Shown piece by piece: positions 32,551-52,185 of a stretch of DNA of 64,000 bases. The stretch is taken from contig CAIKZD010000009.1 of NCBI GenBank assembly GCA_903831805.1, positions 217,939 through 281,938 on the forward strand, given 5' to 3'. The number at the start of each line of letters is the position of its first letter. Position 1 is the first letter of the stretch. Made by a program: the position numbers and the translations under genes. Source of the stretch: an uncultured bacterium (GTDB lineage Bacteria; Patescibacteriota; Minisyncoccia; Moranbacterales; UBA2206). The notes below the pieces were generated by a model that was given only the letters and a program-made list of their open reading frames with translations, did not search any database and was not told the DNA's origin.

Positions 32551-32574
32551 AATCTGTTTTCTAATTTATTTAAG

Positions 32575-33762: not shown

Positions 33763-33764
33763 AA

Positions 33765-34286: not shown

Positions 34287-34295
34287 AAATTTATG

Positions 34296-34700
34296 TTAAA
34301 TATAATTATAATGACTGCGCTTCTCCAATTTGAAATAAGCGGAAAAAGAAAGCAGCAGGATAAGCACGGGCATCAAAAGGATAGTGGCGCTGACCGCCGG
34401 GAAAGTTTCCAACAAAGAAAAGGCAAAATCATTCCAATTGCGCAGGACGGAGGAAGCATCAGTCAAAAGTAGCCGGAGCAGGACCCAAAAATCTGATTGC
34501 AAAAACGCATTGCCATAGGCCATGGCCGCCCAAACAGTCGCTCCGAGCGAGCCCACTAGGCTGAAATGGGCCAAGATCAATTTTTGTCTAATCTGTCTTT
34601 TTTGCAACCGCTCTATGCGCGCCAAAATTGAACCGGCCAGCTTCGCAGATGGCTCAATTCCTCTCATTTCCTTAAATATTTGATGTAAATTCGGTTTCAT
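34296..34700 (-). CDS. putative membrane-bound anti-sigma factor
   Basis: Short cytoplasmic N-terminal segment followed by TM helices, directly downstream of the ECF sigma gene. Confidence 0.4.
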   Translation of the reverse strand: MKPNLHQIFKEMRGIEPSAKLAGSILARIERLQKRQIRQKLILAHFSLVGSLGATVWAAMAYGNAFLQSDFWVLLRLLLTDASSVLRNWNDFAFSLLETFPAVSATILLMPVLILLLSFSAYFKLEKRSHYNYI

Positions 34701-34737
34701 ACATTTATATACGATTCATTTATTCTTTTAGACACAA

Positions 34738-35307
34738 CTACAAGTCCAAAAAGGTTTTTTTCAGCGCCGCTAAAGCTCGACCATGATAAGCCTTAATCGT
34801 GTTGTAGGGGCGGCCTAAAATTTCGGCAATTTCAGTGAGCGTAAAATCCTCTTTGTAATGCAGCGTGAGAATCACTCGATATTTTTCCGGTAGAAGTGCC
34901 AACCTGCCTTCCAGTTCGCGCGCTAAATCTTTTTTCACCAAGATTTCATCCGGCCAGATTGCGTCCTCGGGCATATCCTCCAGTCTGTTGCGCCCATCTT
35001 CATCCGCAAAAAAAGCAAACGGCGTCGTTTTCTTTTTTTTAAAAAAATCCAACGCTGTATTTTTAGTAATAGCAAAAAGCCAAGTCTTGAAACTTTTAGA
35101 CTGATCGAACTTGGACAAATTTTTCCAAGCCTTGATGAATGTCTCTTGCGCCAGGTCTTCCGCGACCGTCGCATCTTTGGTCAGATAATACAAAAAACCG
35201 TAGATCGGTTTCAAATATTTATCCAGTAATTTTTTAAAAGCGTCCTCATCCCCCGCCAGAGAAGCACTCACCAGCCGGCTGTCTCCCTCATTTGTATTTG
35301 GCACCAT
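34738..35307 (-). CDS. ECF-type RNA polymerase sigma factor (sigma-70 family)
   Basis: Region 2 (DLAQETFIKAW) and region 4 (LTEIAEILGRPYNTIKAYHGRAL) are present. Confidence 0.8.
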   Translation of the reverse strand: MVPNTNEGDSRLVSASLAGDEDAFKKLLDKYLKPIYGFLYYLTKDATVAEDLAQETFIKAWKNLSKFDQSKSFKTWLFAITKNTALDFFKKKKTTPFAFFADEDGRNRLEDMPEDAIWPDEILVKKDLARELEGRLALLPEKYRVILTLHYKEDFTLTEIAEILGRPYNTIKAYHGRALAALKKTFLDL

Positions 35308-35310
35308 AGA

Positions 35311-36087
35311 CTATTTTTGATCATACTTCATCTTTTCAAATTCCAAGGCCGCCCCAATGTTTTCCGAAAGAGCACTGCTGAGTTCCAAAGTCTTTTCTCT
35401 AAGCCCGGTCAGATCAAAAAAGTTGAACGCTTCTTCAGCAATGAGCGGATTATAGCTGATTACATGATTACCGTTTTTGAAAAAAATAACTTCTTTTTTG
35501 ACACTGGCAATACGCGGCAGATACTCTTCCAAGGCCAAATAGTCCGTCACGCCATCCCGCCGGCTGTGCAAAAAAAGAACCGGAGTAGTAATACTTTCCA
35601 AGTTTTCCAAGAATCGCCTTTCCATAAAATCAACCATGACCGGCGCCGCGCCCAGCGGATTGAGCCGCCACCTTTCAATTTTTTGCAGCTGGCGCCAAAT
35701 CGGATAAAGTACAGGAAATATTTTTTTTCCAAAATTCATCAATCTTTTGTTCTTCAAACGAAACGGTGTGCCGATACTCACAATCCCAGCTAAATTAGAA
35801 TTCTTTTTCGCGTGCTCTAGCAGCAACGCCCCGCCCAAACTGATGCCGATGCCAAAAACTTTTTCGTATCTGGTCGAGACATCTGATACGACCTTACTAA
35901 TATGCGCAACACAGTCTTTTTCGGTTAGGTGCGTAAAGTCGTTGATAATTTTCGGACCATAAAAACTAACTGCGCTGGCACTGTAGCCCACGCCCTCCAA
36001 AATGTTTTTCAAACCTAAAACTTCCTGATTATCCGAAGAAAAACCGGCCACTAAGATAAAATGAATTTTGGATTTTTCCTCCATCAT
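35311..36087 (-). CDS. alpha/beta hydrolase
   Basis: GxSxG nucleophile elbow (GISLGGAL). Confidence 0.65.
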   Translation of the reverse strand: MMEEKSKIHFILVAGFSSDNQEVLGLKNILEGVGYSASAVSFYGPKIINDFTHLTEKDCVAHISKVVSDVSTRYEKVFGIGISLGGALLLEHAKKNSNLAGIVSIGTPFRLKNKRLMNFGKKIFPVLYPIWRQLQKIERWRLNPLGAAPVMVDFMERRFLENLESITTPVLFLHSRRDGVTDYLALEEYLPRIASVKKEVIFFKNGNHVISYNPLIAEEAFNFFDLTGLREKTLELSSALSENIGAALEFEKMKYDQK

Positions 36088-36719
36088 TCTTTGAATAAAT
36101 TATATTCTTTAGCGAATACCTTCATCGCTATATGAAAAATTGCGTAAGTCATAAAGAAAGCCGCAAAAACATCGATGGAATAATGTAAATGACCCAAGAG
36201 GACCGAACTGCCAAAAACTATCGAGGTGAGAATCGCAATATATCTGATCAATTTTTCATCCCAGAAAATTAAGGCGATCAAAAAAGGCACTCCAGTGTGG
36301 GCACTGAAGAAAAAGTCATTACCCGAGATGAGGGTGGACAATAAGTTGCGCGGATCAATCGGTGTCATGACCGGATACGGGCCCAGATGCGTCAAAGTGA
36401 TGGAAACTGAACGGATCAGATAGAAAAGCGCCATGCTTTTGAAAACGAAAGGCGCTCTTTTCGGTTCGACAATCACACAGTACATCACAAACAGAAAAAA
36501 CAGCTCCACCCCATAATTCAAAAGACCATCCACATCCATCACTGGCAGATTATCCAGGACGATATCATTCACATAATTACTGGCTCGCAGATTGGCGTAG
36601 AGACTGGCAAAATGATTGATCATCAGACTGGCCGCCAGCAAAATCAAACTGGAAAAAACCGCATAACGAAAACCATGTCGACGCCAATAATATTTATATT
36701 TAGAAGCAATTTTTTTCAT
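36084..36719 (-). CDS. polytopic membrane protein, possibly PAP2-like phosphatase fold
   Basis: SAHTG and HLHYSID motifs resemble PAP2 motifs 2 and 3. The assignment is weak. Confidence 0.35.
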   Translation of the reverse strand: MKKIASKYKYYWRRHGFRYAVFSSLILLAASLMINHFASLYANLRASNYVNDIVLDNLPVMDVDGLLNYGVELFFLFVMYCVIVEPKRAPFVFKSMALFYLIRSVSITLTHLGPYPVMTPIDPRNLLSTLISGNDFFFSAHTGVPFLIALIFWDEKLIRYIAILTSIVFGSSVLLGHLHYSIDVFAAFFMTYAIFHIAMKVFAKEYNLFKE

Positions 36720-36725
36720 TTTGTT

Positions 36726-37463
36726 CTATTCGCGAATATCGTTGTATTTTCTTGAAAAAGGTTTCTTAAAAAGAGTAATCCAAATATGGTTAATCGCGTA
36801 CCGGATAGCCGTCACAACCACCCCTTCTCTGGTCAATCGCCGTCCGGAAGTGAACATGGGCAGTTTAAAAGTGAACTTCACCCGTCCAACTTTTTGAATC
36901 CTTTTAGCAATATCCGTATCCTCACCGTAAAAATCAATATTGAGGTCATAACCACCAATTTTTTCCATGGCTGATTTTCTTACTATAAAATTTCCACCTT
37001 GCAACATCGCGCCACGCCGGAGAATAAAATGATTGAACAGATACCCGAGATAACCGATAAAATAAAAAATCTTAGTGCCGATCTTGGCCAAAGGCGATAA
37101 GTCATAATAGATATATGGTCCGCTGAGCGCGACCAGATTTCTATTTTCAGAAAATTCCTTGTATACCCTGTCCAGCCAGCCTTTCGGCAAACGTGTATCC
37201 GCATCGACATTAGCAATCAATTCCCCCGTGGCTGCCAGAAAACCGGCGTGCCGCGCCCAGGTCAAGCCTTTTTTCGGCTGATCAACCACCTGCACGCCAG
37301 GATATGACAGTGCCACTTCGCTGGTCCGGTCAGAACTGGCATTGTTTACTACAATAATTTCAATATCATAATTCTTACCGGAAGTTTCTTTCAGGATAGA
37401 TTCCAAACAACCACCAATCTGTTTCTCTTCATTATAAGCCGGAATGGCAAAAGTGAGTTTCAT
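36726..37463 (-). CDS. glycosyltransferase family 2
   Basis: FAIPAYNEE..VVNNASSDRT..VDADTRLP are GT2 DXD-type motifs. Start taken at MKLTF. Confidence 0.75.
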   Translation of the reverse strand: MKLTFAIPAYNEEKQIGGCLESILKETSGKNYDIEIIVVNNASSDRTSEVALSYPGVQVVDQPKKGLTWARHAGFLAATGELIANVDADTRLPKGWLDRVYKEFSENRNLVALSGPYIYYDLSPLAKIGTKIFYFIGYLGYLFNHFILRRGAMLQGGNFIVRKSAMEKIGGYDLNIDFYGEDTDIAKRIQKVGRVKFTFKLPMFTSGRRLTREGVVVTAIRYAINHIWITLFKKPFSRKYNDIRE

Positions 37464-37464
37464 A

Positions 37465-38691
37465 TTATTTTTGCTTAATCGTCTCTTCATAAATTTTCGC
37501 CCACTCGGCCGCAATCTGCGAGGGCGAAAAATTAGCTACCATCTTCAAGCCGCCTTGTCCTAGAGCTTGTGCCGCCGCTGGATTATTATAAAGATAAACA
37601 ATTTTTTCAGCCATCGTGGCAAAATCTCCCGGTTCCACGATAAAGCCGTTTTGTTCATTGATATATTCCGGCAAGGCCCACGCATTCACCCCGATGGCCG
37701 GTAATCCCGTGGCAAAAGCTTTCATAAGGCTCAAGCTCTGCATCTCGGCCGTACTGGCAATGGCAAACATTTCCACAGCGCGATAGATCCGCGCATGCTC
37801 GGGAGTCGGCAAAGTGCCAAAAAATTTCACCTGATCGCCTATTCCTAATTCCGAAGCTAATTTTTTCAAATCTTTTTCCGCCGCGCCATGTCCCGTAATG
37901 GCAAAATTTATGTTTGGGATTTTTTTGGCCGCCGCGGCCACCGCGCGGATAATCACATCCACGTGCTTTTCTACTCCCAAACGGCCGGTATAAAGCACGG
38001 TGAAATCAGACAGGCCGAATTCTTTTTTAATAATGGCTTTTTCTTCCGCCGAAGCCGGAAAGAAATTTTTGAGATCGACTGGATTGGAAATGACCCGGCG
38101 CGTCTTCTTGAAACCATTTTTTTCCATCTCGGTAAAAATCGCAGCGCACGGCGCACTGACAAACTTGCAACGGTTATAGAACCAAGAAACATAGTTCAGC
38201 GCCAGCTTGTCAATCAACTTGTTCTGCACCGGTCCATATTTCAGAAATTCCGTGATCGGGGTATGATTAGTGCCCACTAAAGGGATTTTCAAAAACCTGG
38301 CGGTCGCCATGCCTTCCACGCCCAAGCCAAAACAATCATGCACGTGAATAACATCCGGCCGATTTTTCTTAACTTTCAGCCAACGCAGAAAAGTCGGCAC
38401 CACCATCCGCCCTTGATTGGTCGGGGCCGGATATGAAAAAGCAAAAAACCGATAAACTTGAATATTTTTGCCTAAGTCCAATTCGATGGCCGGCACTTTG
38501 AAAATCGCAAATTCTTTCGGAGAATATTTCGCCGCGTAGATATCCACAAAATGCCCTAAGCTCGCCAACTCACGCGCCGACTCAATAATAGAATCAGAAA
38601 TCCCACTCATCTCAGGATAAAAGTTGTCAGAAAACATGGCTATTCGCATAGTCTTTTTTGTTCGCTTTATTATATCCCCATAGTAGACCAA
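37465..38691 (-). CDS. glycosyltransferase family 4
   Basis: GT4 fold with a C-terminal E..E region. Confidence 0.8.
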
Positions 38692-38760
38692 AACTGTTTT
38701 TTTGTCACTTATATTGCGCCTATCTCATTATTGTTATACTATAATTGTACTACTAAAGTT

Positions 38761-39828
38761 ATGAACGACCAAATCGAAGCCATTAAAAAAGAATACGCTG
38801 AAATTTCCGCTGAGCTCAATAATCCTGAGAATTTTTCTGATTCCCCCAAAATGGCGGGTTTAGGCAAGCGAAAATCGGATTTAGAAGAAATAATAGCTAA
38901 AATTGGCGAATTTGAAGCGGTGGAAAAAGCCATGCAGGACAATGCGGAAATGGTCAATTCGGCCGAAGAAGACCCGGAGATGAAACAGATGGCCATGGAA
39001 GAAAACGTATCGCTTTCCCAAAAAATGGATGTTTTACAAAAAGAATTGGAGCTTTTAATCCTTCCGAAAGATCCGCATGACAACAAAGGTGTCATCGTGG
39101 AAATCCGAGCGGGCGCCGGCGGCGATGAAGCTGCGCTTTTTGCCGGGGAAATTTTTCGCATGTATTCCAGATTTGCCGAGCGTGATCGTTGGCAAATTTC
39201 CCTGCTCAACACTAGCGTCATCGGCATCGGTGGGTATAAAGAAGTCGTTTTCGAAATCAATGGTCAGGGCGTATACGGCAAGATGAAATATGAATCCGGC
39301 GTGCACCGCGTGCAGCGCATTCCGGAAACGGAAAAGAATGGCCGGGTGCAAACTTCCACCATCACTGTGGCCGTTCTGCCACAAGCTGAAGAGGTGGAAC
39401 TCAAAATTGAAGACAAAGATTTGCGCATCGACACTTTCTGCTCATCGGGCCCGGGTGGCCAATCCGTCAACACCACCAAATCAGCCGTGCGCATCACTCA
39501 TCTCCCGACCGGCCTCATCGTTTCTTGCCAAGATGAAAAATCACAGATTAAGAACAAAGAAAAAGCTATGAAAGTTTTGCGTTCGCGACTGTTGCAAGCC
39601 GAAGAAGAAAAAGCGGCCAAAGAACGGGGCGACGCACGCAAATCTCAGATTGGCACCGGCGACCGCAGCGAAAAGATCCGCACCTACAACTTCCCCCAAG
39701 ACCGCATCACTGACCATCGCGTGAAAGAATCTTGGAGCAACATCAAAACTATTCTCGAGGGCAATCTCAATCAAATTATCGACGTCCTGATCCAAGAAAA
39801 TCAAAAAAGACTATTGGAGAAAAAATAA
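38761..39828 (+). CDS. prfA: peptide chain release factor 1
   Basis: GGQ motif ([10 protein letters not shown]) and a PET tripeptide at the RF1 PxT position. Start taken at [10 protein letters not shown]. Confidence 0.9.
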
Positions 39829-39833
39829 AGATA

Positions 39834-40196
39834 TTATTTGCCTTGCAAAAACTTCCCCACCTCCGGCGAGAAATATTTCTCGCCTTTAACCATTTTGTAT
39901 TGATGATAGTCTTTGCTCATGTGTGAGCGATGCACTTCCGCAAAAATATCTCCGATCTTGTCTTGCAAACCATGTTCCAAGATCGTGCCATACACGCCGT
40001 ATAAAATATCACACAATTCTTTGGCAATGTTTTCCAGGTCATTATTTTGTACACCTTTAGCATATTCTCGCACCTCTTCTTCCATCAAACGATAGCGCAA
40101 ATCTGACCGGTCTTTCGGAATCAAAGCTGGCCTTTCCAAGATGGGCGCTTGGAATTTTTGGTGGAATTTTTTGACTAAGTCGAGTTGTTTTTGCAT
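39834..40196 (-). CDS. MazG-like NTP pyrophosphohydrolase family protein
   Basis: 120-aa all-alpha protein with an EExxE acidic motif (LMEEEVREYAKG). Confidence 0.4.
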   Translation of the reverse strand: MQKQLDLVKKFHQKFQAPILERPALIPKDRSDLRYRLMEEEVREYAKGVQNNDLENIAKELCDILYGVYGTILEHGLQDKIGDIFAEVHRSHMSKDYHQYKMVKGEKYFSPEVGKFLQGK

Positions 40197-40419
40197 GTAT
40201 TTAAAATAATCATTTATTCAAGATACTGTCTATGTATTCTGCTTTTGTTTGAGTTGATAAGTAGAACCTGACATTAAACTGTTTTATAGTGTTACTTGGA
40301 TTAATTTTATCATAGCTTGCGGCTCCCACTAAGGTTGCTTTCTGAGAAAAATCTCCACTTTTAATGGAATTGCGGAACAAAAAATTTAGGAGAGAAAATT
40401 TTGTTTTCCTTATCGTAAT

Positions 40420-41253
40420 TTATTTTGGTGATTCCAATTTTTTCGCGCCATTACTAGTTAAAAGCGATTTCATTTGAATAATCGCAGTATTATTTAATTT
40501 TAAAATTCGGTCTTGTTGGGTCATTCCATCACGAATTAGCAGTGCGTTGATACTCTCGATATTAGATAAAACCACCAACTGTTCAATTGTGGCATAGTCT
40601 CGAATGTTTCCTTTTAGCTTTGGATTTTTGTCCCGCCATATTTTGGCGGTCATTCCAAATAATGCCATGTTGAGCAAGTCTGCTTCATTGGCATATTTCA
40701 TAATTGCTTGATCCTTCGTTAATTCGTGTGGGATTAGATTATCCTTGATGGCATCAGTATGAATTTTGTAATTGATTTTTGCCAGCGTTCTTTGAAGATT
40801 CCATTCTAATTTTTGCCTGTTATTTTCATCCTCCTTTAATCTCTGAAATTCTTTTATAAGGTAAAATTTGAATTCCGCCGAAATCCACGAGGCAAATTCA
40901 AAAGCAATGTCTTTGTGGGCGAAAGTGCCGCTATTATAGCGCCCTCTCGTGGCAAAAATTCCAATAGCGCCCGTTTTATTGACCCATTGTTGGACTGACA
41001 ATGCAAATCCATTGGCGCCGCTTTGATTTTTAAAGTCACTGAATTCAGTTACTTTAAAACTGGAGTTGTTCATCTTCTCCCATATTCCCATGAATTCAAT
41101 AGCAAAACGAGTGCTCATCCAATGAGATATAACCAGGCCAGCTTCTGAGTTTTTATGTTTAGCTATATCGGTCAAAGAAATATAATCTTCGCTCCTCTGT
41201 TTGAAGACTGTAATATCCATGCCCTCTACATTTATTTTTTGATTCTTTGTCAT
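40420..41253 (-). CDS. KilA-N domain protein (phage-associated)
   Basis: The N-terminal 120 aa resemble the KilA-N/APSES fold (..GTFAHKDIAFEFASWISAEFKFYLIKEF..). Confidence 0.55.
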   Translation of the reverse strand: MTKNQKINVEGMDITVFKQRSEDYISLTDIAKHKNSEAGLVISHWMSTRFAIEFMGIWEKMNNSSFKVTEFSDFKNQSGANGFALSVQQWVNKTGAIGIFATRGRYNSGTFAHKDIAFEFASWISAEFKFYLIKEFQRLKEDENNRQKLEWNLQRTLAKINYKIHTDAIKDNLIPHELTKDQAIMKYANEADLLNMALFGMTAKIWRDKNPKLKGNIRDYATIEQLVVLSNIESINALLIRDGMTQQDRILKLNNTAIIQMKSLLTSNGAKKLESPK

Positions 41254-41262
41254 AAGGTAATT

Positions 41263-41286
41263 ATGGCGAATTCGCCGTAATTAAAA
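41263..41286. promoter_or_regulatory. 24-bp near-perfect palindrome (aattatggcgaattcgccgtaatt) in the KilA-N 5' leader; operator-like
   Basis: 22 of 24 positions are symmetric, lying 10 bp upstream of the KilA-N start codon. Confidence 0.35.
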
Positions 41287-41296
41287 AATTTACTTT

Positions 41297-41399
41297 GTCT
41301 AACGTTTCGGCATATCTGATGTTTGCCGTAGCGTAGCGGAGGCAAATATGGGTGGAGGCTCGCCGGAGGCGAACCGCAACCAGATATGCCGTGTTATGT
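41297..41399. repeat. F3 attC-like element copy a (103 bp)
   Basis: Ends GTCTAAC...GTTATGT on the plus strand (ACATAAC...GTTAGAC in gene sense). Inner inverted boxes ggcatatctg / cagatatgcc. Variable centre. Confidence 0.55.
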
Positions 41400-41475
41400 G
41401 ATGTGCATGTTTTACTTTAATCCCGATGGCAATCGGGATTGCTCTAAAAAAGAATTTTAATTTTGTTTTTTTGTT

Positions 41476-41520
41476 TTGGATTTTGGGCAGAGGGGTTAGG
41501 GGTGAATGCCCAAAATCCAA
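41476..41520. repeat. F1 hairpin element copy a
   Basis: ttggattttgggca-gaggggttaggggtgaa-tgcccaaaatccaa. The stem covaries with copies b and c. Confidence 0.6.
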
Positions 41521-41594
41521 AACTCCTTATTCTGTTTGAGGGAGGGGCAAGAGGGGAATTAAAGGGGTGAATTGCCCCGACCGAAAAAATTCAA

Positions 41595-42095
41595 TTAAAC
41601 TATCAATAAGACAAATAATAAAACTACTAAAACAAACAGGCATTTTGTACTGTTTTTAACATTATTCATTTTTTGATCAGCAATTATCGAGTTTGTATAT
41701 ATTTGCTCTGATATTTGCTTTTTTGCATCTTCTTCTGTTAATTTTTCCATTTCATTAAAATAATCAATCGGTTTTAACTTGGCGACATTTCCAAAGTAAA
41801 AAAGTGATTTATTTGTATTTGTATTTTTCAAACGAGGGAAAACGGAGCTGATTAAAAAGAATATTCCTAAAATAAATAGACCAATAGTTATTATAATTAA
41901 AATAGTATACAGACAAAGACCCCAGTTCTCAAAGTTTGAAATTGAGGAAATCACAATTCCTTTAAATGAAACAGTGCCTAAAAAAATTCCTGAATAATAA
42001 GCAGACAAAAACGCACTTTTTTTATCAGCAGACTGAATCCAGTCGCTAACTCTATTTAATTCATTTTGTAAAAAAGATAATTCTAGGTTTTTCAT
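41595..42095 (-). CDS. small 3-TM membrane protein, candidate effector paired with the cyclase
   Basis: 166 aa with a soluble N-terminal 30 aa, two adjacent TM helices, a roughly 60-aa charged loop and a C-terminal TM. A 3-bp gap separates it from the cyclase gene. Confidence 0.5.
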   Translation of the reverse strand: MKNLELSFLQNELNRVSDWIQSADKKSAFLSAYYSGIFLGTVSFKGIVISSISNFENWGLCLYTILIIITIGLFILGIFFLISSVFPRLKNTNTNKSLFYFGNVAKLKPIDYFNEMEKLTEEDAKKQISEQIYTNSIIADQKMNNVKNSTKCLFVLVVLLFVLLIV

Positions 42096-42098
42096 AGT

Positions 42099-42911
42099 TT
42101 AATTTAGTTTATCTATATAATTATCAGCACAGTGCACACACCAACCAACTTGGGTGTAATAAAATTTGTCTCCAAGCGTATCATCTGAAAAATCAGTAAC
42201 TTCTATAAAAACAGGATTTCTTTGTTCTAAAATGTCGGTATCGCCATTATGGCAGTTATATAATCCGAATTTCGGTTGCGCAACAAAATCTTTGTAGACT
42301 TCCTCAGATATTATTATTGGCGATTTGGCCCCATTAAATTTTTCAGGGGCGTCTTGGAATTGCTTGGATAATTTTGCAGCATTATTAACAAGTCTTCCTG
42401 CCCATACCTCATTATAGTCACCTCTCTTGCCGATCTTTTTGACTAAAATTTTGTCTTTATGGATGCCAATTTTACAACTAAGATTACCGCCTTCATCATC
42501 TTGAAATTTTGTTTTAATCTTTTCTTCAAAAATTTTTCTAAAAGTGATTGATGCGTAAAATGCTTTATACGAAGCATGCTCGCCTTCGTAGATAGCAAAT
42601 GCGCCATCTCCTTTTATATCTACATAGTCAGCACAGAAAGATTCATGATTAAAAACATCAACTAGCGTTTGAGTAAAGTAGTCATAGATCTTTGCCATTG
42701 TGACCGGATGTTTTTTGAATGAGATTTTTGACGATTTATCTAAGTCAACAAAAAGACAAACAAATTTATTATCACCACCAACCCAAGTAGGTTTTTCTAA
42801 GTAAGCATCTTCTTTGATGCTTGAAATTGATTCAATTTCAGCAATTTTAAAATCATCAAAGCGTTTTTCTGCCTTTTCCTTCAATTCTTCTATAAAGTCA
42901 TCAATTTGCAT
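42099..42911 (-). CDS. class III nucleotidyl cyclase homolog (adenylate/guanylate-cyclase fold; Pycsar/cNMP-cyclase-like)
   Basis: Metal-binding motifs CLFVDLDKSS (F.D..GFT-like) and VDIKGDGAFAIYEG (iGDa-like), plus VWAGRLVNNAAKLSK matching the conserved VWGd.VN.AaR transition-state region. Confidence 0.65.
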   Translation of the reverse strand: MQIDDFIEELKEKAEKRFDDFKIAEIESISSIKEDAYLEKPTWVGGDNKFVCLFVDLDKSSKISFKKHPVTMAKIYDYFTQTLVDVFNHESFCADYVDIKGDGAFAIYEGEHASYKAFYASITFRKIFEEKIKTKFQDDEGGNLSCKIGIHKDKILVKKIGKRGDYNEVWAGRLVNNAAKLSKQFQDAPEKFNGAKSPIIISEEVYKDFVAQPKFGLYNCHNGDTDILEQRNPVFIEVTDFSDDTLGDKFYYTQVGWCVHCADNYIDKLN

Positions 42912-42927
42912 ATTGTTATTATAAATA

Positions 42928-43584
42928 TTATAAATTATCCGTTACTCCAAAAAAATTCTTAATTATCGGATACTCTTGTTTTAAAAAGTATCTTCCCGAC
43001 TCGTTGTCTTTGATGAGAAAAAATTGTTTTTTTATACATTCCTCGTCTTCTTCCAAGCAGGCAATGCAAACGATAAAATCAATATGCGGATATTCTATGC
43101 TGACGGCAGTATTTTCTTTCCAGCTTTCTAAGTCTTTGTCATAAGTCCAGCCGAAACGGTTTAAAATTGTCTTTTTCTCAATAGCAGTGTTGTAGCAAAA
43201 CAATCCGCATAGTGGCTTGATGCCAGGGTCAATGGCTTTTATCCTTTCAAAATTCTTGTTCGTCTTTTTTATGTCTGGTCCGGTTGCGTTGGATTTTACT
43301 TCCAAAACTAATTTGCAATGTCGTGGATCAATCATTACTTGGTCGCCCAATGGGGTCGTGGTTGCCGTGGTTTCGTGAAATATCAAATCACATTCTCCGC
43401 TCTGTATTCCGTTTTTGGCGACTATGCCTTTTTTGCCTCGCAACGATTCTTTTCTTTTTAATACCAAATCACGCAAAAAGTCTTCTCGGATTGTTCCTCT
43501 GGGCAAGTGTTGTTGCACAAATTCCGACACTCGATATTGAGCGCGGAGCAGGTCTTCATAGTATTGTGCAAATATCTCGTCCAT
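42928..43584 (-). CDS. hypothetical protein with PD-(D/E)xK-like motif
   Basis: GECDLIFHE ... LVLEVKSN spacing is consistent with a restriction-endonuclease-like core. The assignment is weak. Confidence 0.35.
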   Translation of the reverse strand: MDEIFAQYYEDLLRAQYRVSEFVQQHLPRGTIREDFLRDLVLKRKESLRGKKGIVAKNGIQSGECDLIFHETTATTTPLGDQVMIDPRHCKLVLEVKSNATGPDIKKTNKNFERIKAIDPGIKPLCGLFCYNTAIEKKTILNRFGWTYDKDLESWKENTAVSIEYPHIDFIVCIACLEEDEECIKKQFFLIKDNESGRYFLKQEYPIIKNFFGVTDNL

Positions 43585-43593
43585 ACATAAAAA

Positions 43594-44718
43594 TTACAAT
43601 TCACCCTTAAACGCTTTTTGCATCAAGGCTTGAAATTGGGTTTCGAGTTCGTTGGATTGAGAAAGCATTTTTTGTTTAATTAATTCGGTTTTTTCTTTCA
43701 ATCCGAGATAAATTTTTTGCTCATCAAGACTTGGTACTAATATTTTTATTTTTTTAATAATACCTACATTTACAATTCCCATCGTCCCGCCATGAGATAC
43801 ATCTTTTATTTGTTTCTGTACTGATTGGCTAGTTAATAATTCTTTCAAAAATAACGGCAGTATAATATTTTGATTTGGTGTTATTTTCATTAGACGAGGA
43901 TTAATAATGCCTGGTTCAAATTTTTCTGGCACAACACTAATTTTCCCAAATGTTCCTACTAAGCTTATTAAAATATCTCCTTGTTGTATTTTACAACTTT
44001 CTAAGGTTCGATATCTTTCTTCGTTAATATAATAATCTCCATAATTGAAGTCATCTTTAATAACCTGTTCTTGTCCATATATTTTATAACCTGATTTTAC
44101 ATAAAATTCCTTCTTCAAAGATGAGCCAAATGGACCTGCCTTGATTCCATTTTTTTCTTTAATGGCAACATCATTAATTATTTGTATATTATAATTTTTC
44201 GGATTCTTCACTGGATCCCCAAACATCTCCAAAAACACCGACTTCAAATAATCATCCAAAAGCCCGATGGCTTGTTTTCGTTTTTGGCGAAGCGCGTCCG
44301 CCTCATCAAGAATTTTTACAATGCGTTTTTGGTCTTCGAGCGGTGGAAGTGGGATTATTGGATCAGTTAAATTATTTATCTTTATGTATTTTATAACTCC
44401 GCCAATAGATAATTCTCTTAATTTTTCAACATACTTAAATAAAAACCAATAAAGATATCGGGTATCCAAAACTGATTCGTCTTTACTTTCGATTATATAG
44501 GTTCTTTGATATGCATCGAATTTACCTTCGTAATATTTTACATTTAAATCACCATTTCCAGCCACAAGCACGCACTTACAATCATAAGAATATGAGCTTA
44601 TTTTTAAGGGCTTTTTGGAACAAGTAAAAAAAGGATACTCGCCATCAGGCGAGCTCGCATTTGCATCAAGTTTGCCAGTCCTTATTTTTACAAAATTTCC
44701 AAGTTTATTTTTAATCAT
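43594..44718 (-). CDS. hsdS: Type I restriction-modification specificity subunit
   Basis: Two target-recognition domains separated by the conserved central region (LPPLEDQKRIVKILDEADALRQKRKQA) and a C-terminal conserved helix (LVPSLDEQKIYL). Confidence 0.85.
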   Translation of the reverse strand: MIKNKLGNFVKIRTGKLDANASSPDGEYPFFTCSKKPLKISSYSYDCKCVLVAGNGDLNVKYYEGKFDAYQRTYIIESKDESVLDTRYLYWFLFKYVEKLRELSIGGVIKYIKINNLTDPIIPLPPLEDQKRIVKILDEADALRQKRKQAIGLLDDYLKSVFLEMFGDPVKNPKNYNIQIINDVAIKEKNGIKAGPFGSSLKKEFYVKSGYKIYGQEQVIKDDFNYGDYYINEERYRTLESCKIQQGDILISLVGTFGKISVVPEKFEPGIINPRLMKITPNQNIILPLFLKELLTSQSVQKQIKDVSHGGTMGIVNVGIIKKIKILVPSLDEQKIYLGLKEKTELIKQKMLSQSNELETQFQALMQKAFKGEL

Positions 44719-44720
44719 AA

Positions 44721-46241
44721 TTACAAATTTTTCAAATCACTAAGTCCAGCAACGATTTCTTGCTCCAGCGATTCAATCTTTCCCAAAATCACTTTTGGAT
44801 CTTCGTAAACCATTTCATCGTAATCCGTTACTTTGTAGCGATTGATACTCAAATCAAAATCAGCTTTTTCTATATCACTTTTATTAACATAGAAAAATTT
44901 ACTATTGAGCTTGTTTTCGGTTTGGTCTTTTCTTGTTTTCCATTTCGCCACAATATCCGGCAAATCACCCCCGCCGTTGATCTTGCTTCGCTTGTCGTCC
45001 AATGTGTAGCCGTCGGATTGCATATCATAAAACCAAACCTTTTCAGTTTCGCCGCCTTTTACAAATATCAAAATCGCGGTGCTTACTCCAGCGTAGGGCT
45101 TGAATACTCCGCTCGGCATCGAAATAACGCCTTGCAGTTCACACTCATTGATAAGCATCTTGCGCGCTTGCTTGTGGGCATTGCTAGAACCGAACAGCAC
45201 GCCGTCTGGCACAATCACACCGGCTCGTCCTCCGATTTTGAGGGATTTTATAATGGTATTGATAAACAATAATTCCGTTTTTGTCGTAGCGAGTGAGAGC
45301 GATTCGTTGATGTCGCCCTTATCAATACTGCCTTTGAAAGGCGGATTCGCCATGATGCAGTCATAAAAATTATTCTCGTCGTATTTTTTGGAGAGCGTAT
45401 CTTTTTGTTCGATGTTTGGATTGGAGATGCCGTGCATCATCAAGTTCATGAGTCCAATACGCACCATGCTTTCGTCCATGTCATAGCCGTAGAAAGTTTT
45501 TTCTTTGAGATGCGTCCATTGTCGCTCGTCGGTGAGCTTGTCGCCCAGATCGCCACGCGTCAGTCCGTTTTCATCAGTTTTTCTGTGTTCTTTGCTGGTA
45601 TGTGCTGTGAGAATATGCTGATAGGCACCGAGCAAAAATCCGCCTGTACCACAAGCTGGATCACAAATAGTATCGCCCAATTTTGGATCTACGAGTTCAC
45701 AAATAAGTTGAATGATGTGGCGCGGTGTGCGGAATTGGCCGAGCTTGCCGGCGCTCGTGATTTCTGAGAGCAAATATTCGTAGAGATCTCCCTGGGTGTC
45801 TTGAAAACCTTGTCCGGCCGAATCTTGCTTGGCGATTTCTTCAAAAATATCATCAATAATATTCACCGCTTCCACCAAAAGCGACGGCTTGGAAATGATA
45901 AAAACCGCGTTGCCCATGTGTTTGGCAAAGGGACTTTCTTCTTTGCCGATAGTTTTCAGAAATGGAAAAACTTTAGTTTGAATATGTGTCAGCATTTCGC
46001 CACCTTCCATTTGTCTGAAATGGCTCCAGCGCAAATTTTCTTTGTCATTTCCAAAAAGTGACTTGTACGCTTCTCCGGTAAATTCGGCGTCTTGTCTTTT
46101 CTTAATATCCATCTCGTCCAAGCGCTTCATAAAAAGCAAATAGGAAATTTGCTCAATAGCCGTGAGCGGATTGGATATGCCACCGCTCCAAAATTTATCC
46201 CAGAGCCTGCCAATTGATGATTTGAGTGTTGGATTAAGCAT
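44721..46241 (-). CDS. hsdM: Type I R-M N6-adenine DNA methyltransferase
   Basis: HsdM N-domain, AdoMet motif (DPACGTGGFL) and catalytic NPPF. Confidence 0.9.
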   Translation of the reverse strand: MLNPTLKSSIGRLWDKFWSGGISNPLTAIEQISYLLFMKRLDEMDIKKRQDAEFTGEAYKSLFGNDKENLRWSHFRQMEGGEMLTHIQTKVFPFLKTIGKEESPFAKHMGNAVFIISKPSLLVEAVNIIDDIFEEIAKQDSAGQGFQDTQGDLYEYLLSEITSAGKLGQFRTPRHIIQLICELVDPKLGDTICDPACGTGGFLLGAYQHILTAHTSKEHRKTDENGLTRGDLGDKLTDERQWTHLKEKTFYGYDMDESMVRIGLMNLMMHGISNPNIEQKDTLSKKYDENNFYDCIMANPPFKGSIDKGDINESLSLATTKTELLFINTIIKSLKIGGRAGVIVPDGVLFGSSNAHKQARKMLINECELQGVISMPSGVFKPYAGVSTAILIFVKGGETEKVWFYDMQSDGYTLDDKRSKINGGGDLPDIVAKWKTRKDQTENKLNSKFFYVNKSDIEKADFDLSINRYKVTDYDEMVYEDPKVILGKIESLEQEIVAGLSDLKNL

Positions 46242-49065
46242 AATGTAAAATTTTATTAGTAAATGACAAGATTTCCGTTTGCAACTGCGGAGTGAATAGC
46301 CCCAAGAAACCGCGAGCGTGCAATTTGGTAAATGGCTCGCTAACGAGATCTTTCTTTGTCAGTTCACCATTGTTGATAATAAAATCACGAAGTACAATCA
46401 GAAACTGGATTTGATTTGAAGCCAGTGTGTTATGTTCGGCAATAAATTCAGCAAAAGCCTCCGAGACTTTTTCGGAAAAAGTGACGAGTCCGCCAATACC
46501 CATAATGTATTTAATCAAATCCAAAAACTGTACCTTGCGGGCATCATAGGCTTTTTGCAGGTTCTCTTCGGTTGGATAGGGATCATACTCGTTTAGCGTG
46601 TCAGCCAGTTCTTCCACTTCTTCCTGCGTAATATCTGCACCTTGTTTTATTTTCTGCAATATTTTGTTTTCTGCTTCCAATTTTTTCACCAGCGCCTCAA
46701 CTTTTTCACGATATTTTTTGATAGTAATGCGTTCATGCGCCGGACCAAATTTGATAAATTCTTTTTCGCTTGTTATATCGCGTAAATCCAGAGAATCTTG
46801 GTCGGGCTTGATGCCTTCTTCGCGATATTTCATCAATGGAGCGATTTTTTGGATCAGAATTTCTAAGGCATTTTCATCGGCTTTTTCAAGATAGCCATTA
46901 TTCAATATCTCTTCTATCAGTTCTTTCTCTTTGACGACAACATTCACAGACAACGGCAAATCAGACACCATTTCAATAATTACTTCCGCAAGAGTTTTTA
47001 CCTTTTTATCTTGACCATCTTGTTCATCAAGTTTGGCGATGGAATAATATAAAACTTTAAGTTCAAAGCTCATTGCCTTGTAGTCTTCGCCGGTTCGCGT
47101 GCGCATAAGTGGCGCGATTTCCTTTTCTAAAAATAGTTTTTTATCTTCATTAAGTTTTTGCCAAAAGGTTTCATCGACTTTATCAATCTTGCTTTTTGCG
47201 TCCAAAATAACCACATTGTTTGGTGGAAGTTTGGCAATATCTTCTTTTAATTTTTGAATGGTATTCTGTACAAGCTCAGCATTATTTTGCGCTTCAGCCA
47301 GATTGAGTTTTTGTAGTTTAGTTTCAAAAAGACGGACAGGCAGCGGTTTTGATGGCTTATCTATTTTTCCGGTTGGGTTCATTTGAAAATATTCAAAATT
47401 TTCCCAACAATCAATGATAAGGAATTTATCTTTTACCTTGCACCATGGCTTTATTTTCTTAGCTTCCAAAAGTCTTGTTCCTCGCCCGATCATCTGCCAA
47501 AATTTGGTATAAGAAAAAACTGGTTTTACAAAAACAAGATTGACGAGTTCGCGCACATCTATACCAGTATCAAGCATATCCACGCTAATGGCGATGCGCG
47601 GAAAGTCTTTATTAACAAATTGATCGAGCAGACCGCCTTTTCCATAAACACGAGAATCGTCCGAAACGATAACTTTGGCAATATTGCCTTTATGTTCAGG
47701 GTAGAGATCATCAAAAACTTCTTGTAATCTTCGTGCGTGCTTCATCGTCATGGCAAAGAAAATAGTTTTGCCGGGCAGAGTTCCACTTTCGTCTTTTATG
47801 CACGATTCCATAAACTCTTGCACGATAAGCGCGTTCGTTCCTTTGTTGGTTACTTTTTTCTCAATTTCACTGCCATCATAATTTATTTCTGTTGGCTCTT
47901 TGCCGTCGGCAAGTAATTTTTGTTGTTCGGCAATGGTAATATTGTCTTTTCTTATTCCTTCTTTTTGGAATTTGGTGCGAACTTTTAGAACTTCAAAATC
48001 TGAAAGATATGGGGGCTTATTGTTTATCGCTTCCTCGTATGAGTAGGCATAAGTCGGTATGCCGTCTTCACATTCAAAAATACCAAAAGTATTATGCTCA
48101 ATCGCATCTTTTGGCGTAGCAGTTAAACCAAGCTGAACAGAATCAAAATAATCAAAAATATTTTTGTAAACATTGTAGATTGACCTATGACTTTCATCTG
48201 CCACAATCATGTCAAAAAAATGAGGACTAAGCGGACAGTCTTTATCTTCAATGATATTGAGCATTGTCGGATAAGTAGCACAATAAATTCGTCTATCCGT
48301 TACAATGTCATGCTCGCCGACTTTTGGCCAAACCGGAGCGTTTGGTAAAAATTCTTTAAAAGCATCAAGAGCTTGATTTCTAAGTGCGATTCTGTCCACT
48401 AAAAACAAAACTTTTTGCACTTTGTTTGCTCGCATCAACGACTCAATCATTGCCACGCAGGTTCTTGTTTTTCCGGTACCTGTTGCCATTACAAGCAATG
48501 ATTTTCTCTTTCCTTTGTCTAAGTTTTCAAAAACTGAGCGGATAGCCTCGATCTGATATGGTCGTCCAGCAATGTCTTTCTGGATTAATTCTTGGGAAAG
48601 TGGTTTCTCGTTTTTGCGCAAAAACAACATTCTTTCTAAATCTTTTTTTGTTGGAAATCCGTACACTTTGCGGGGTGGATATTTTTCAGTATCCCAAAAA
48701 TAAATATCGTGTCCGTTTGTATAAAAAACGAATGGCATATCCTTACCAGAATTTTTCTGAATATTTTCGGCATATTGACGGGCTTGTTCTTGTCCGACCC
48801 TCGCATCCTTCGAGGTTTTTTTTGCTTCTACAATTGCCAAAGGATAACCACTATCTCCAAGTAAGGCGTAATCAGCAAATTGAAAGCCTTGATATTCGTG
48901 TTCCGGCTCCTTAACCCCTTCTGGCAAGCCAATCCAAATATCAAGCTCGGATGTAACTTGTGCTGGATCATTAACTTTCCAGCCGGCTTTTGCGAGCCTT
49001 CCATCTATAATTTCTTGTCTTGTTTGTGCTTCAGTTTTTGTCATAATTATTTTCAAGTTAAACAA
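46234..49065 (-). CDS. hsdR: Type I R-M restriction subunit (SF2 helicase + nuclease)
   Basis: Typical HsdR N-terminus (TEAQTRQEIID..AGW), Walker A GTGKT and DEAH-box IVADESHRS. 943 aa. Confidence 0.9.
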   Translation of the reverse strand: MFNLKIIMTKTEAQTRQEIIDGRLAKAGWKVNDPAQVTSELDIWIGLPEGVKEPEHEYQGFQFADYALLGDSGYPLAIVEAKKTSKDARVGQEQARQYAENIQKNSGKDMPFVFYTNGHDIYFWDTEKYPPRKVYGFPTKKDLERMLFLRKNEKPLSQELIQKDIAGRPYQIEAIRSVFENLDKGKRKSLLVMATGTGKTRTCVAMIESLMRANKVQKVLFLVDRIALRNQALDAFKEFLPNAPVWPKVGEHDIVTDRRIYCATYPTMLNIIEDKDCPLSPHFFDMIVADESHRSIYNVYKNIFDYFDSVQLGLTATPKDAIEHNTFGIFECEDGIPTYAYSYEEAINNKPPYLSDFEVLKVRTKFQKEGIRKDNITIAEQQKLLADGKEPTEINYDGSEIEKKVTNKGTNALIVQEFMESCIKDESGTLPGKTIFFAMTMKHARRLQEVFDDLYPEHKGNIAKVIVSDDSRVYGKGGLLDQFVNKDFPRIAISVDMLDTGIDVRELVNLVFVKPVFSYTKFWQMIGRGTRLLEAKKIKPWCKVKDKFLIIDCWENFEYFQMNPTGKIDKPSKPLPVRLFETKLQKLNLAEAQNNAELVQNTIQKLKEDIAKLPPNNVVILDAKSKIDKVDETFWQKLNEDKKLFLEKEIAPLMRTRTGEDYKAMSFELKVLYYSIAKLDEQDGQDKKVKTLAEVIIEMVSDLPLSVNVVVKEKELIEEILNNGYLEKADENALEILIQKIAPLMKYREEGIKPDQDSLDLRDITSEKEFIKFGPAHERITIKKYREKVEALVKKLEAENKILQKIKQGADITQEEVEELADTLNEYDPYPTEENLQKAYDARKVQFLDLIKYIMGIGGLVTFSEKVSEAFAEFIAEHNTLASNQIQFLIVLRDFIINNGELTKKDLVSEPFTKLHARGFLGLFTPQLQTEILSFTNKILHYA

Positions 49066-49082
49066 TGTTATTGTATTCGTTT

Positions 49083-49155
49083 TCCCCTTATAAATAAATC
49101 GTTTTCGTAGCGTAGCGGAGAAAACACCTTATACCCCTTTCTAAATAAATAAAAA
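49083..49155. repeat. F2 shared promoter/leader element copy a (immediately 5' of hsdR)
   Basis: ccccttataaataaatcgttttcgtagcgtagcggagaaaacaccttatacccct; near-identical copies lie 5' of the 429-aa gene and the GIY-YIG gene. Confidence 0.5.
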
Positions 49156-49217
49156 ACAAAATTCAAATTCTTTTTTTGAGCTGGGCGATAGCCCAAAAGT
49201 AAAACATGCATTTCACA

Positions 49218-49585
49218 TAACGTGCGCGGATAATCCGAAGTAGTCGGAGGGAAATTCATTTCCCGACGGCTATTTCGGATATCCGCTGATATCCGATGTG
49301 TCGCAAGCGAAGCGAAGCGGCACAGAGGGTATCGGCGGAGGTATCCGCGCACGATATTCAAAATGGAGCAAGCGTAGCGCGCGACATTTTGGATATCGTT
49401 TACGCATCATCTGAAGTTTTCATCCCGACTTTGCAGGATAAACTTTTGATTTCAAACAATGCTTTATTAAATTATCTCCGCCTAAACCTTCATCTAAACT
49501 AAAGGATGAAAATTTGGGCGGAGGGAAATTGACACTCCTTGAATCGCTTTGGTCAATTTCCTGTAGCCAGATATGCGTTGTTAGG
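49218..49585. repeat. degenerate F3-like copy (49218..49300) plus F3 attC-like copy b (49397..49585)
   Basis: Copy b ends ...cagatatgcgttGTTAGGC on the plus strand (GCCTAAC in gene sense) with the inner box cgcatcatctg. The upstream degenerate copy has gcggataatccg / cggatatccgc boxes. Confidence 0.45.
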
Positions 49586-49639
49586 CGATGAAACTAAAAA
49601 TTTCCTTTCCTAATAATAAAGAATTTTTGGCAATTTTAT

Positions 49640-50353
49640 TTAAAAACTCTTTCCATCTTCGTTATGACAACCATTCTCATTGCAAGTAAGTATTTTGCCA
49701 GATGATGTTGTAGCACAATACTGGAAAGTCGCCTCATTGCCATTGCGCCTTACAAAGAATTCACAACCACCCCATTTACCACCATCAATCTCAAGATTAA
49801 GCCAGACCTCTTTTACTGCGCTATTCTGACACACAGACAATCCTGTTTTTGGCTCAAGTAGATACCCACCATCATCCACACAGAGGCTAGCATCTGGCCA
49901 TAGAAATTGAATCTTATCTTCTATAATTTTATCATTTATATCATTCATGTATGCAGCATTAACAATTTTAGCAGCGCGCTCCTCGCCAATATATTCACTC
50001 AATTTTTTATTTTTTTCTTCTTTGAGCGAAGAACTATCATTTTCATCAGAAAGAAGGTTCACGGTAGTTAGCTCAACCAAAGAGATTGCGCATGATTCAT
50101 CCTGTGATTGTGCCATCGCCATCATCGCCCGCTCTCTTTTAACTTCATATCGAGTTATATGGATATAGTCAATATTATCAGCCACGAATTTTTCATTAAG
50201 CTTCTTCTTAAGCGCTGTGGCTTGTTCACAAAGATTATTCTTCACCACACTTTCACTTTTTTTATCCAATACTTGAGCTGTTGGCTGTTGACCACACCCA
50301 GCCAAAAAGACTACTCCAAACAGCACTGAACTTATTGCTATTACTTTTTTCAT
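49640..50353 (-). CDS. lipoprotein, Cys-rich C-terminal domain
   Basis: Signal peptide with lipobox (FLAGC). 237 aa, function unknown. Confidence 0.6.
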   Translation of the reverse strand: MKKVIAISSVLFGVVFLAGCGQQPTAQVLDKKSESVVKNNLCEQATALKKKLNEKFVADNIDYIHITRYEVKRERAMMAMAQSQDESCAISLVELTTVNLLSDENDSSSLKEEKNKKLSEYIGEERAAKIVNAAYMNDINDKIIEDKIQFLWPDASLCVDDGGYLLEPKTGLSVCQNSAVKEVWLNLEIDGGKWGGCEFFVRRNGNEATFQYCATTSSGKILTCNENGCHNEDGKSF

Positions 50354-50461
50354 AATTATTTTTTTGTTAATTTATTAAAAATTATTATTAGAACGAGTTG
50401 CCGACCGAGCAAAATTGCCAAAAATTCTTTTCAAAATAGATAGGAAATTTTTAGTTTTTTC

Positions 50462-50611
50462 GCCTAACGTTACTCATATCTGAAGTTTTTGTCTTCCTTC
50501 CTTAGTGTAATATATAAAGAAAAAGAAGGCAAAAATTTGGGTGGAAGAAATTTGCACTCCTTATTATTAGTTATTGATGCAAATTTCTGTAACCAGATAT
50601 GAGTTGTTAGA
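50462..50611. repeat. F3 attC-like element copy c (150 bp)
   Basis: GCCTAAC...GTTAGAC terminal boxes. Inner boxes ctcatatctg / cagatatgag are compensatory relative to copies a and d. Confidence 0.55.
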
Positions 50612-50679
50612 CGATGTAAATTTATTTTCTTTTTTAAATCCGCTTTTTATTCTAAATAGATTAAATAAGTTTTTTTGTT

Positions 50680-50724
50680 TTGAATTTTGGGCAGAGGGGT
50701 CAGGGGTGAATGCCCAAAATTCAA
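50680..50724. repeat. F1 hairpin element copy b
   Basis: ttgaattttgggca-gaggggtcaggggtgaa-tgcccaaaattcaa. Confidence 0.6.
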
Positions 50725-50758
50725 AACTCCTTATTACAATTTTTCCGTAACATTTTAT

Positions 50759-52077: not shown

Positions 52078-52185
52078 TCGTTTTCGTAGCCTTAGCGGAG
52101 AAAACACCTTTTTCCCCTCTATAAATAGATAAAAAAAACTTATTTTTCCTTATTATAAAAAGCGAATTTAAAAAAGAAAATAAAT
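52078..52185. repeat. F2 shared promoter/leader element copy b (extended homology to copy c)
   Basis: cgttttcgtagccttagcggagaaaacacc...ataaaaaaaacttatttttccttattataaaaagcgaatttaaaaaagaaaa. Confidence 0.5.

Follow-up and report, generated by a model that had tools for sequence, protein, structure and literature searches.

The closest described relative of the defence system treated here is the Pycsar system of Anabaena, whose clade D uridylate cyclase AnPycC has AnPycTM as its partner and whose anti-phage activity was shown experimentally (PMC11224242). Mutagenesis of AnPycC showed that F60, K104 and F109 of the UTP pocket and a clade D-specific zinc site (C221, C223 and C260, completed by H263) are needed, and D62 and D106 were reported as conserved metal-coordinating aspartates (PMC11224242). 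PycTM was described as the pJV1-spdB3 family with three transmembrane (TM) helices (bioRxiv 10.64898/2026.08.12.744502), and the classical cyclic nucleotide-binding domain (CNBD) was described for PycTIR, not for PycTM (PMC11224242). The embedding of other defence systems in Type I restriction-modification (R-M) operons has also been described: DarTG2 in enteropathogenic Escherichia coli (PMC12255303) and TgvAB in the VPI-2 island of Vibrio cholerae (bioRxiv 10.1101/2024.04.04.588119). The hsdS-hsdR junction has been proposed as a recombination hotspot, and a 'guilt-by-embedding' idea has been published for defence systems within Type I R-M operons. Here I analyse a stretch of 64,000 nucleotides (the window) of contig CAIKZD010000009.1 from an uncultured bacterium of the Patescibacteria, in which a pycC-pycTM pair follows hsdR, hsdM, hsdS and the gene of a DUF6602/NucC-like nuclease.

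The locus is very probably a composite defence island made of two self-sufficient modules standing head to tail and probably co-transcribed, with a canonical Pycsar system placed after a Type I R-M system and its DUF6602 gene, and with neither needing the other. The first module is the four-gene Type I R-M cassette hsdR-hsdM-hsdS-DUF6602 and the second is the two-gene Pycsar system. The modules would stand side by side because other defence cassettes repeatedly land in Type I R-M operons.

The Pycsar pair

The map of open reading frames (ORFs) confirmed the ORFs of the initial annotation of this stretch, together with its cyclase motifs, its gaps of 2-16 bp and its D...E.K motif. Homologues of the ORFs of 270, 166 and 218 amino acids (aa) number from dozens to more than 100 each, and the exact sequences of the three proteins were each found on 13-16 contigs from different sources. 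None of the three is spurious, and all are real genes; this holds also for the 166-aa ORF, for which a spurious origin had been considered and which has family matches and many homologues. NCBIfam gave no match for any of the four proteins searched, and Rfam at its gathering threshold gave none within the locus.

The 270-aa protein carries the motifs CLFVDLDKSS (residues 52-61), IKGDGAFAIYEG (99-110) and VWAGRLVNNAAKLSK (169-183). Its best PADLOC match is PycC (PDLC02369, 2.4e-62), and it scores 23.3 bits against Pfam Guanylate_cyc (PF00211; cut-off, 21.9). The closest solved structure is that of AnPycC (PDB 8jsz), which was found with 6e-22 by phmmer from the single sequence, in a pairwise alignment spanning residues 39-184 only, and with 2.9e-42 by the family profile of 40 sequences, which reaches residues 50-273. 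These matches bear out the initial view of the protein as a class III cyclase.

In these alignments, D56 and D102 of PycC correspond to the metal-binding D62 and D106 of AnPycC, F54, K100 and F105 are identical to the UTP-pocket residues F60, K104 and F109, and C220, H221, C258 and C261 stand at the zinc-site positions C221, C223, C260 and H263. By the family profile, the CGC and WCPIH motifs of 8jsz align to C220(-H221) and W257-C258-x-x-C261. Among the 40 members of the PycC family, D56, K100, C220 and C258 are invariant, F54, D102 and F105 are at least 90% conserved, and the second and fourth zinc ligands alternate between Cys and His. Since the metal, UTP-pocket and zinc residues of AnPycC are kept, the 270-aa protein is classed, from its sequence, as a clade D-like PycC that ends in a zinc ribbon, and its predicted product is 3',5'-cyclic UMP (cUMP). 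The question whether the specificity residues are of the pyrimidine or purine type, raised in the initial annotation, is thus answered in favour of pyrimidine as far as the alignment goes. A role of PycC as a housekeeping signalling enzyme was considered and rejected; the PycC-specific models and the obligate PycTM neighbour speak against it.

In Pfam, the 166-aa protein is matched by PF18967 ('PycTM, Pycsar effector protein') with 1.5e-15 and 58 bits (cut-off, 27.2) and in PADLOC by PycTM with 7.7e-31, and NCBI names one relative 'Pycsar system effector family protein [Patescibacteria group bacterium]'. It has two strong hydrophobic segments (about residues 58-85 and 148-166) and a moderate one (about 27-50), its AlphaFold2 model is entirely helical (predicted local distance difference test score, pLDDT, 86.5), and Foldseek found nothing for this model in the PDB at E <= 0.001. 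No Pfam match to cNMP_binding was found in PycTM. The hydrophobic segments and the Pfam search agree with the earlier description of a protein with three TM helices and no recognisable cyclic nucleotide-binding domain. The suggestion of a new effector type does not hold, for by these family matches the protein is a canonical Pycsar effector PycTM, and the absence of a recognisable binding domain is normal for this class. Since three TM helices without a classical CNBD are the rule among PycTM proteins, the 'missing sensor' is no sign of a new effector. The cyclase-TM pair is a routine Pycsar case, of a kind already recognised by PADLOC, by Pfam models and by the NCBI naming of the relative; its main use is this correction, that such an absence is not novelty.

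Is the pair conserved elsewhere? I compared the window with 56 related PycC loci, mostly from Patescibacteria, which were obtained by scanning JGI metagenomes and a genome set with one member per species; labels such as L008 denote related loci in this comparison. A PycTM gene adjoins PycC in 46 of the 47 related loci with room for one, usually with a gap of 0-12 bp, a count that includes divergent PycTM queries added to the search. The co-conservation that the initial annotation had proposed to check was thus found. Seemingly effector-less loci (L015/L045 and L048/L058) were rejected as such; they have divergent PycTM genes, which had been overlooked by single-query phmmer.

Two further observations were made at the related loci. 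A second, very divergent class III cyclase paralogue lies beside PycC-PycTM in many of them (L011-L013, L016, L019, L021, L022, L039, L044, L045, L049, L050, L054 and L058) and not in the window; multi-cyclase loci were already mentioned in the Pucsar preprint (bioRxiv 10.64898/2026.08.12.744502). In many loci of Patescibacteria, a lexA-like gene lies next to Pycsar, upstream on the same strand in L012-L014, L018, L039, L043 and L044 and divergent in L021 and L040-L042. [quoted passage not shown] The lexA-like neighbour could be a conserved insertion site or a sign of SOS-linked regulation.

By homology with the Anabaena system, phage infection would activate a PycC dimer, which would cyclise UTP to 3',5'-cUMP. 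The signal would then activate PycTM, which probably oligomerises and compromises the membrane, and growth arrest or cell death would come before the release of phage progeny, as in abortive infection.

The DUF6602 nuclease and its Type I R-M cassette

HsdR, HsdM and HsdS are all present and intact, with contiguous ORFs, according to the ORF map and PADLOC. The hsdR genes of identical and related loci carry HSDR_N, ResIII and EcoEI_R_C domains. Homologues of hsdR are 935-940 aa long and a candidate ATG lies seven codons inside the TTG-started ORF, which suggests that this ATG is the true start.

The 218-aa protein scores 25.9 bits against Pfam DUF6602 (PF20247; cut-off, 27), its full-length relatives in L073 (34.3 bits) and L074 (35.5 bits) lie above the cut-off, and NCBI names two relatives 'DUF6602 domain-containing'. 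It also matches PADLOC PD_DExK with 8e-8. E34 and the residues of the motif D66...E95-V-K97 are all invariant across 27 homologues, and all four align with the NucC active-site motif. At the sequence level, the family profile also picks up the NucC proteins of Serratia (6.2e-7) and Vibrio (0.003). The AlphaFold2 model is confident (pLDDT, 89; predicted template modelling score, 0.87), and the protein has the restriction-endonuclease fold with NucC-specific additions and an active site of the ID-x30-EAK type. It is a NucC-family PD-(D/E)xK nuclease, and the nuclease-like motif pointed out in the initial annotation is borne out. Y8, L12, L13, Q16 and Y17 are invariant in a conserved N-terminal helix, which is only suggestive of a NucC-like homotrimer or hexamer. 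The NucC ligand residues are R53 and Y81 (bioRxiv 10.1101/694703), which contact cyclic triadenylate (cA3); the aligned DUF6602 positions have a non-basic and non-aromatic consensus (s, a) and are variable across the family. This mapping was made by hidden Markov model (HMM) alignment to Serratia NucC with E. coli NucC numbering assumed, and T226 and the gate loop (H136/Y141) lie outside the aligned stretch.

The full-length DUF6602 subfamily is small, with about 60 clusters (50% identity) at E <= 1e-30 among 1.84 billion representatives. A tblastn search with DUF6602 found nothing in phage genomes and one record among plasmids, which was also the only record returned by two further DUF6602 queries, and a Foldseek comparison of the DUF6602 model with viral structures (BFVD) yielded nothing beyond weak matches to generic nucleases. 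In each of the 13 distinct contexts examined (30-88% identity, three gene orders), DUF6602 is found together with Type I R-M genes, and it lies directly after hsdS in 11 of them. Homologues with 54-88% identity end hsdR-hsdM-hsdS-DUF6602 cassettes that have unrelated downstream genes and no Pycsar (L024, L028, L029, L033, L075, L078 and L080). More distant homologues are found in hsdM-hsdS-DUF6602-hsdR (L074, 35% identity), after an hsdM-like gene (L032, 37%) and in hsdS-hsdR-DUF6602 on a Shewanella plasmid (30%). The genomic association typical of NucC was not found, as a CD-NTase lies near DUF6602 in only three of the 13 contexts (L073, L077 and L078), each time with its own effector. The DUF6602 nuclease gene belongs, as a conserved accessory, to the Type I R-M cassette rather than to Pycsar. 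No description of a DUF6602 nuclease linked to Type I R-M genes was found in the literature searched, in which one paper mentioning DUF6602 came up.

This conserved link is the only lead worth following at the locus. As a tentative and rather doubtful proposal, the DUF6602 branch would be an undescribed, rare branch of NucC and a dedicated partner of Type I R-M. It could be a latent DNase, gated by a ligand or by the state of the R-M complex, that serves as a back-up to restriction as in the PrrC model, and it might also answer the nucleotide of a Pycsar or CBASS cassette that has landed next to it, as at this locus; a single operon would then unite restriction with DNA degradation and membrane killing. 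If DUF6602 were indeed gated in either way, abortive infection would be layered on restriction in a new manner, and NucC-type nucleases would be at work outside CBASS and CRISPR.

Two modules, and whether they are coupled

The distributions of the two modules are separate. Besides the seven cassettes without Pycsar, the related PycC loci outside the lineage of the window and L081 have no DUF6602 beside PycC. DNA homology to L024 stops at the stop codon of DUF6602 (window 42928), and DNA homology to stand-alone Pycsar loci covers window 41559-42946. From the limits of homology at 42928 and 42946, the locus therefore consists of two cassettes joined within about 20 bp. Among the 35 Pycsar loci with at least 3 kb of flank, eight have an R-M gene within 6 kb and none was detected in the other 27.

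Where the Pycsar pair meets R-M genes, it is often inside the operon. The order is hsdM-hsdS-PycC-PycTM-hsdR with gaps of 2-3 bp in L020 (2949-10125), the pair lies between hsdS and hsdR also in L023 (5226-14961) and L066, and it lies between hsdM and hsdS in L008 (456-5266). The gaps are 2-8 bp where ORFs were listed (L020, L023 and L008). These four loci are separate lineages, with PycC 43-85% identical to that of the window. In L034 and L069, Pycsar directly follows a Type IIG enzyme. CBASS is found in similar positions: L077 (2-4940) has a complete CBASS in the order hsdM-(1TM effector-CD-NTase)-hsdS-DUF6602, the Shewanella xiamenensis plasmid NZ_AP026733.1 (L073, 15-7665) has hsdS-hsdR-DUF6602 followed by a CD-NTase with AGS_C and a Cap15-like 2TM effector, and L078 has a convergent pair of a CD-NTase gene and a SAVED-domain gene one gene from R-M and DUF6602. 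Each neighbouring cyclase has its own effector, which argues against DUF6602 being required. Recurrent insertion of cassettes into Type I R-M operons fits the published embedding pattern. The repeated embedding of Pycsar and CBASS, mostly on contigs attributed to Patescibacteria, extends 'guilt-by-embedding' to cyclic-nucleotide abortive infection in very small genomes.

Some side features of these loci may be mentioned. The R-M operon of L023 has also taken up a PIN-domain gene and a further gene of 236 aa. In L077, the genes from the 1TM effector through DUF6602 overlap, and the PADLOC candidate PDC-M36A follows DUF6602. The gene order of L073 matches that of the window, but its signalling parts are unrelated.

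A second genome (L081/L082), which holds the closest relative of the six-gene block, has hsdR-hsdM-(YhcG-like nuclease)-hsdS-DUF6602-PycC-PycTM, with 86-90% DNA identity over a 7.8-kb block (window 41301-49116) and with flanking genes that differ from those of the window. The gene inserted there between hsdM and hsdS encodes a YhcG/DUF1016 nuclease. In L081 (10490-10989) and also in L082, two independent samples, pycTM is split into ORFs of 118 and 51 aa, which suggests inactivation of a toxic effector.

Several points weigh against two merely adjoining modules. The six-gene block recurs as a unit in the L081 context, which could reflect selection for the combination. A nucleotide cyclase is adjacent or one gene away in four of the 13 distinct R-M-DUF6602 contexts, a proportion that perhaps exceeds what mere location in a defence island would produce. 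Since DUF6602 is homologous to a nuclease gated by a second messenger, cross-talk with PycC is conceivable. Every step of the mechanism proposed above would hold in this organism by homology with the characterised Anabaena system. As for transcription, the six genes are packed tightly enough to be probably co-transcribed, and to this extent the transcriptional fusion to hsdRMS claimed in the initial annotation stands. The scans speak neither for nor against co-transcription (27 promoter-like sites in the promoter scan against 29.6 expected, not above chance, and no terminator placed between the genes of the operon), and TATAAT-like hexamers lie directly upstream of pycC.

Could the operon fusion be mechanistic? 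On the PrrC model, the DUF6602 nuclease, Pycsar or both would be wired to the Type I enzyme as a guard or back-up and released or activated when a phage anti-restriction protein disables restriction. The company of DUF6602 and Type I R-M genes in 13 of 13 contexts (11 directly after hsdS; 30-88% identity, three gene orders) is consistent with such wiring, and so are the movement of the six-gene block as a unit and the gaps of 2-8 bp around Pycsar at the hsdS-hsdR or hsdM-hsdS junction in L020, L023 and L008. In L074, moreover, DUF6602 lies between hsdS and hsdR, which is also the slot of prrC in the prr locus of E. coli. This coupling is nevertheless unlikely. The 27 of 35 Pycsar loci with adequate flank and no detected R-M gene within 6 kb do without it, the embedded systems tested in the literature act alone (TgvAB by itself gave protection), and HsdR keeps its own D...EAK motif, so there is no missing function to supply. 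Since this N-terminal nuclease motif (ADYAL...IVEAKK, read directly from the translation) is intact, the replacement of a defective HsdR nuclease by DUF6602 was rejected. A second-messenger input to Type I restriction, as the initial annotation put it, is not supported in that form either, because of the same 27 loci and because R-M with DUF6602 mostly occurs without a cyclase.

A three-gene module with two effectors seems highly improbable. Here the DUF6602 nuclease would be a second receptor of the cyclase's nucleotide and DNA degradation would accompany membrane damage. The order of R-M, DUF6602, cyclase and TM effector does recur on the Shewanella plasmid with an unrelated cyclase (CD-NTase with the Cap15-like 2TM protein), and CBASS adjoins DUF6602 in L077 and L078. 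However, most R-M-DUF6602 contexts have no cyclase (L024, L028, L029, L033, L074, L075 and L080), Pycsar loci outside the window/L081 lineage have no DUF6602, and each adjacent cyclase is already paired with an effector of its own. The aligned positions do not keep R53 and Y81, and the ligand of NucC is a cyclic trinucleotide, not a cyclic mononucleotide. It is also quite unlikely that PycC makes cyclic GMP (cGMP), as in Pucsar, or cyclic AMP instead of cUMP, with the logic otherwise unchanged. In its favour, cGMP is the product of a sister branch of Pycsar cyclases whose effectors have three TM helices (bioRxiv 10.64898/2026.08.12.744502), and the specificity of PycC is read from three aligned residues only. 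Yet the structure most closely related to it is that of AnPycC, a clade D uridylate cyclase, those residues (F54, K100 and F105) are identical to the UTP-pocket residues, with no variation at K100 and at least 90% conservation of F54 and F105 in the 40 members, and the clade D-specific zinc ribbon is present. Two self-sufficient modules, Type I R-M with DUF6602 and Pycsar, thus remain the preferred reading.

The surrounding island and comparison with known systems

The region of 40-60 kb around the locus is a larger defence island (Table 1). A divergently oriented tyrosine integrase follows its second restriction cluster. The G+C content is about 0.42-0.50 in a housekeeping stretch (30000-39500) and about 0.32-0.40 in most of the defence island (39500-52000), with hsdM as an exception within the island (about 0.45). 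There is no tRNA gene in the 64-kb window, and hence no tRNA marking an integration site. The 15-mer CTCCGCTACGCTACG forms a direct repeat with two exact copies in the window, where 0.03 matches (with up to two mismatches) are expected by chance. These copies sit within two families of dispersed intergenic repeats of about 60-80 nucleotides (nt), 88-96% identical, which match no Rfam family. Inverted repeats at 41393-41471 and 49151-49221 were considered as transposon termini and rejected; they belong to the dispersed intergenic repeats, of which more copies lie at about 50.7, 52.1-52.4 and 59.1 kb.

Table 1. Features of the locus and of the surrounding window
Feature	Position	Strand	Remarks
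pycTM (166-aa ORF)	41595-42095	-	Pycsar membrane effector, three-TM pJV1-spdB3 family; 3-bp gap to pycC
pycC (270-aa ORF)	42099-42911	-	Pycsar cyclase, clade D-like; 16-bp gap to 218-aa ORF
DUF6602/NucC-like PD-(D/E)xK nuclease (218 aa)	42928-43584	-	9-bp gap to hsdS
hsdS, Type I specificity subunit, 374 aa	43594-44718	-	Pfam Methylase_S 3.9e-26; PADLOC Specificity_I 9e-66; 2-bp gap to hsdM
hsdM, Type I methyltransferase, 506 aa	44721-46241	-	PADLOC MTase_I 7.5e-177; 8-bp overlap with hsdR
hsdR, Type I restriction subunit, EcoEI_R_C type, 943 aa from TTG	46234-49065	-	PADLOC REase_I 4.3e-168
15-mer, downstream copy	41327-41341	-	Near edge of block common to L081
15-mer, upstream copy	49106-49120	-	About 40 nt upstream of hsdR
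Dispersed repeat family	41465-41533, 50669-50735, 52376-52444		
Dispersed repeat family	49079-49156, 52078-52136, 59116-59193		
MazG/PRA-PH-like pyrophosphohydrolase, 120 aa	39834-40196	-	Downstream of pycTM
KilA-N domain protein	40420-41253	-	Directly downstream of pycTM; end-to-end match to PADLOC candidate PDC-S22, 1e-127
Second restriction cluster and further defence-type genes	52472-60178		DUF6119, AlwI-family endonuclease, D12 adenine methyltransferase, RadC-JAB + D12 methyltransferase fusion, DUF4357
RNase P RNA, bacterial class A	20662-21015	-	135.6 bits

The cyclase and its effector have in common with AnPycC and AnPycTM of Anabaena the two-gene layout, the pair of Asp residues, the F/K/F pocket and the zinc-ribbon positions, and the cyclases are of similar length (270 aa here and 280 aa in AnPycC). 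The zinc ligands are C-H...C-x-x-C in PycC of the window, while they are C-x-C...C-x-x-H in AnPycC. Unlike the Anabaena system, the pair probably resides in a host of the Patescibacteria (candidate phyla radiation), and it closes a Type I R-M operon at its 3' end. PycTM resembles the PycTM/PucTM family (PF18967) in being small, all-helical and three-TM, in being encoded right after the cyclase and in matching the HMMs above their cut-offs. No solved structure matched the PycTM model, and no ligand site was defined in the published PucTM hexamer.

The DUF6602 protein shares its fold, including the additions beyond the restriction-enzyme core, with NucC, the cA3-activated endonuclease of type III CBASS and type III CRISPR (PDB 6p7p and 7zgv). 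The active site is D-x28-E-V-K in the DUF6602 protein and ID-x30-EAK in NucC, the identity between the two is about 10%, and R53 and Y81 have no conserved counterpart. The DUF6602 protein is linked to Type I R-M genes, while NucC is linked to CD-NTase or Cas10. Damona of the Vibrio cholerae superintegron is likewise a DUF6602 nuclease and was named an anti-phage system by its authors, who pointed out that it resembles the Cas PD_DExK and CBASS small-endonuclease models (bioRxiv 10.1101/2024.07.02.601686). Damona is a single-gene, stand-alone integron or prophage cassette, whereas DUF6602 here is a conserved gene within Type I R-M operons or at their end; the two are set apart by description only.

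The locus resembles prrC in EcoprrI, DarTG2 and TgvAB in that hsdRMS has a second defence module within it or at its end, spaced as in an operon. The hsdS-hsdR junction recurs as a point of insertion. Unlike PrrC, DarTG2 and TgvAB, the passenger here is Pycsar (CBASS in related loci) together with a NucC-like nuclease.

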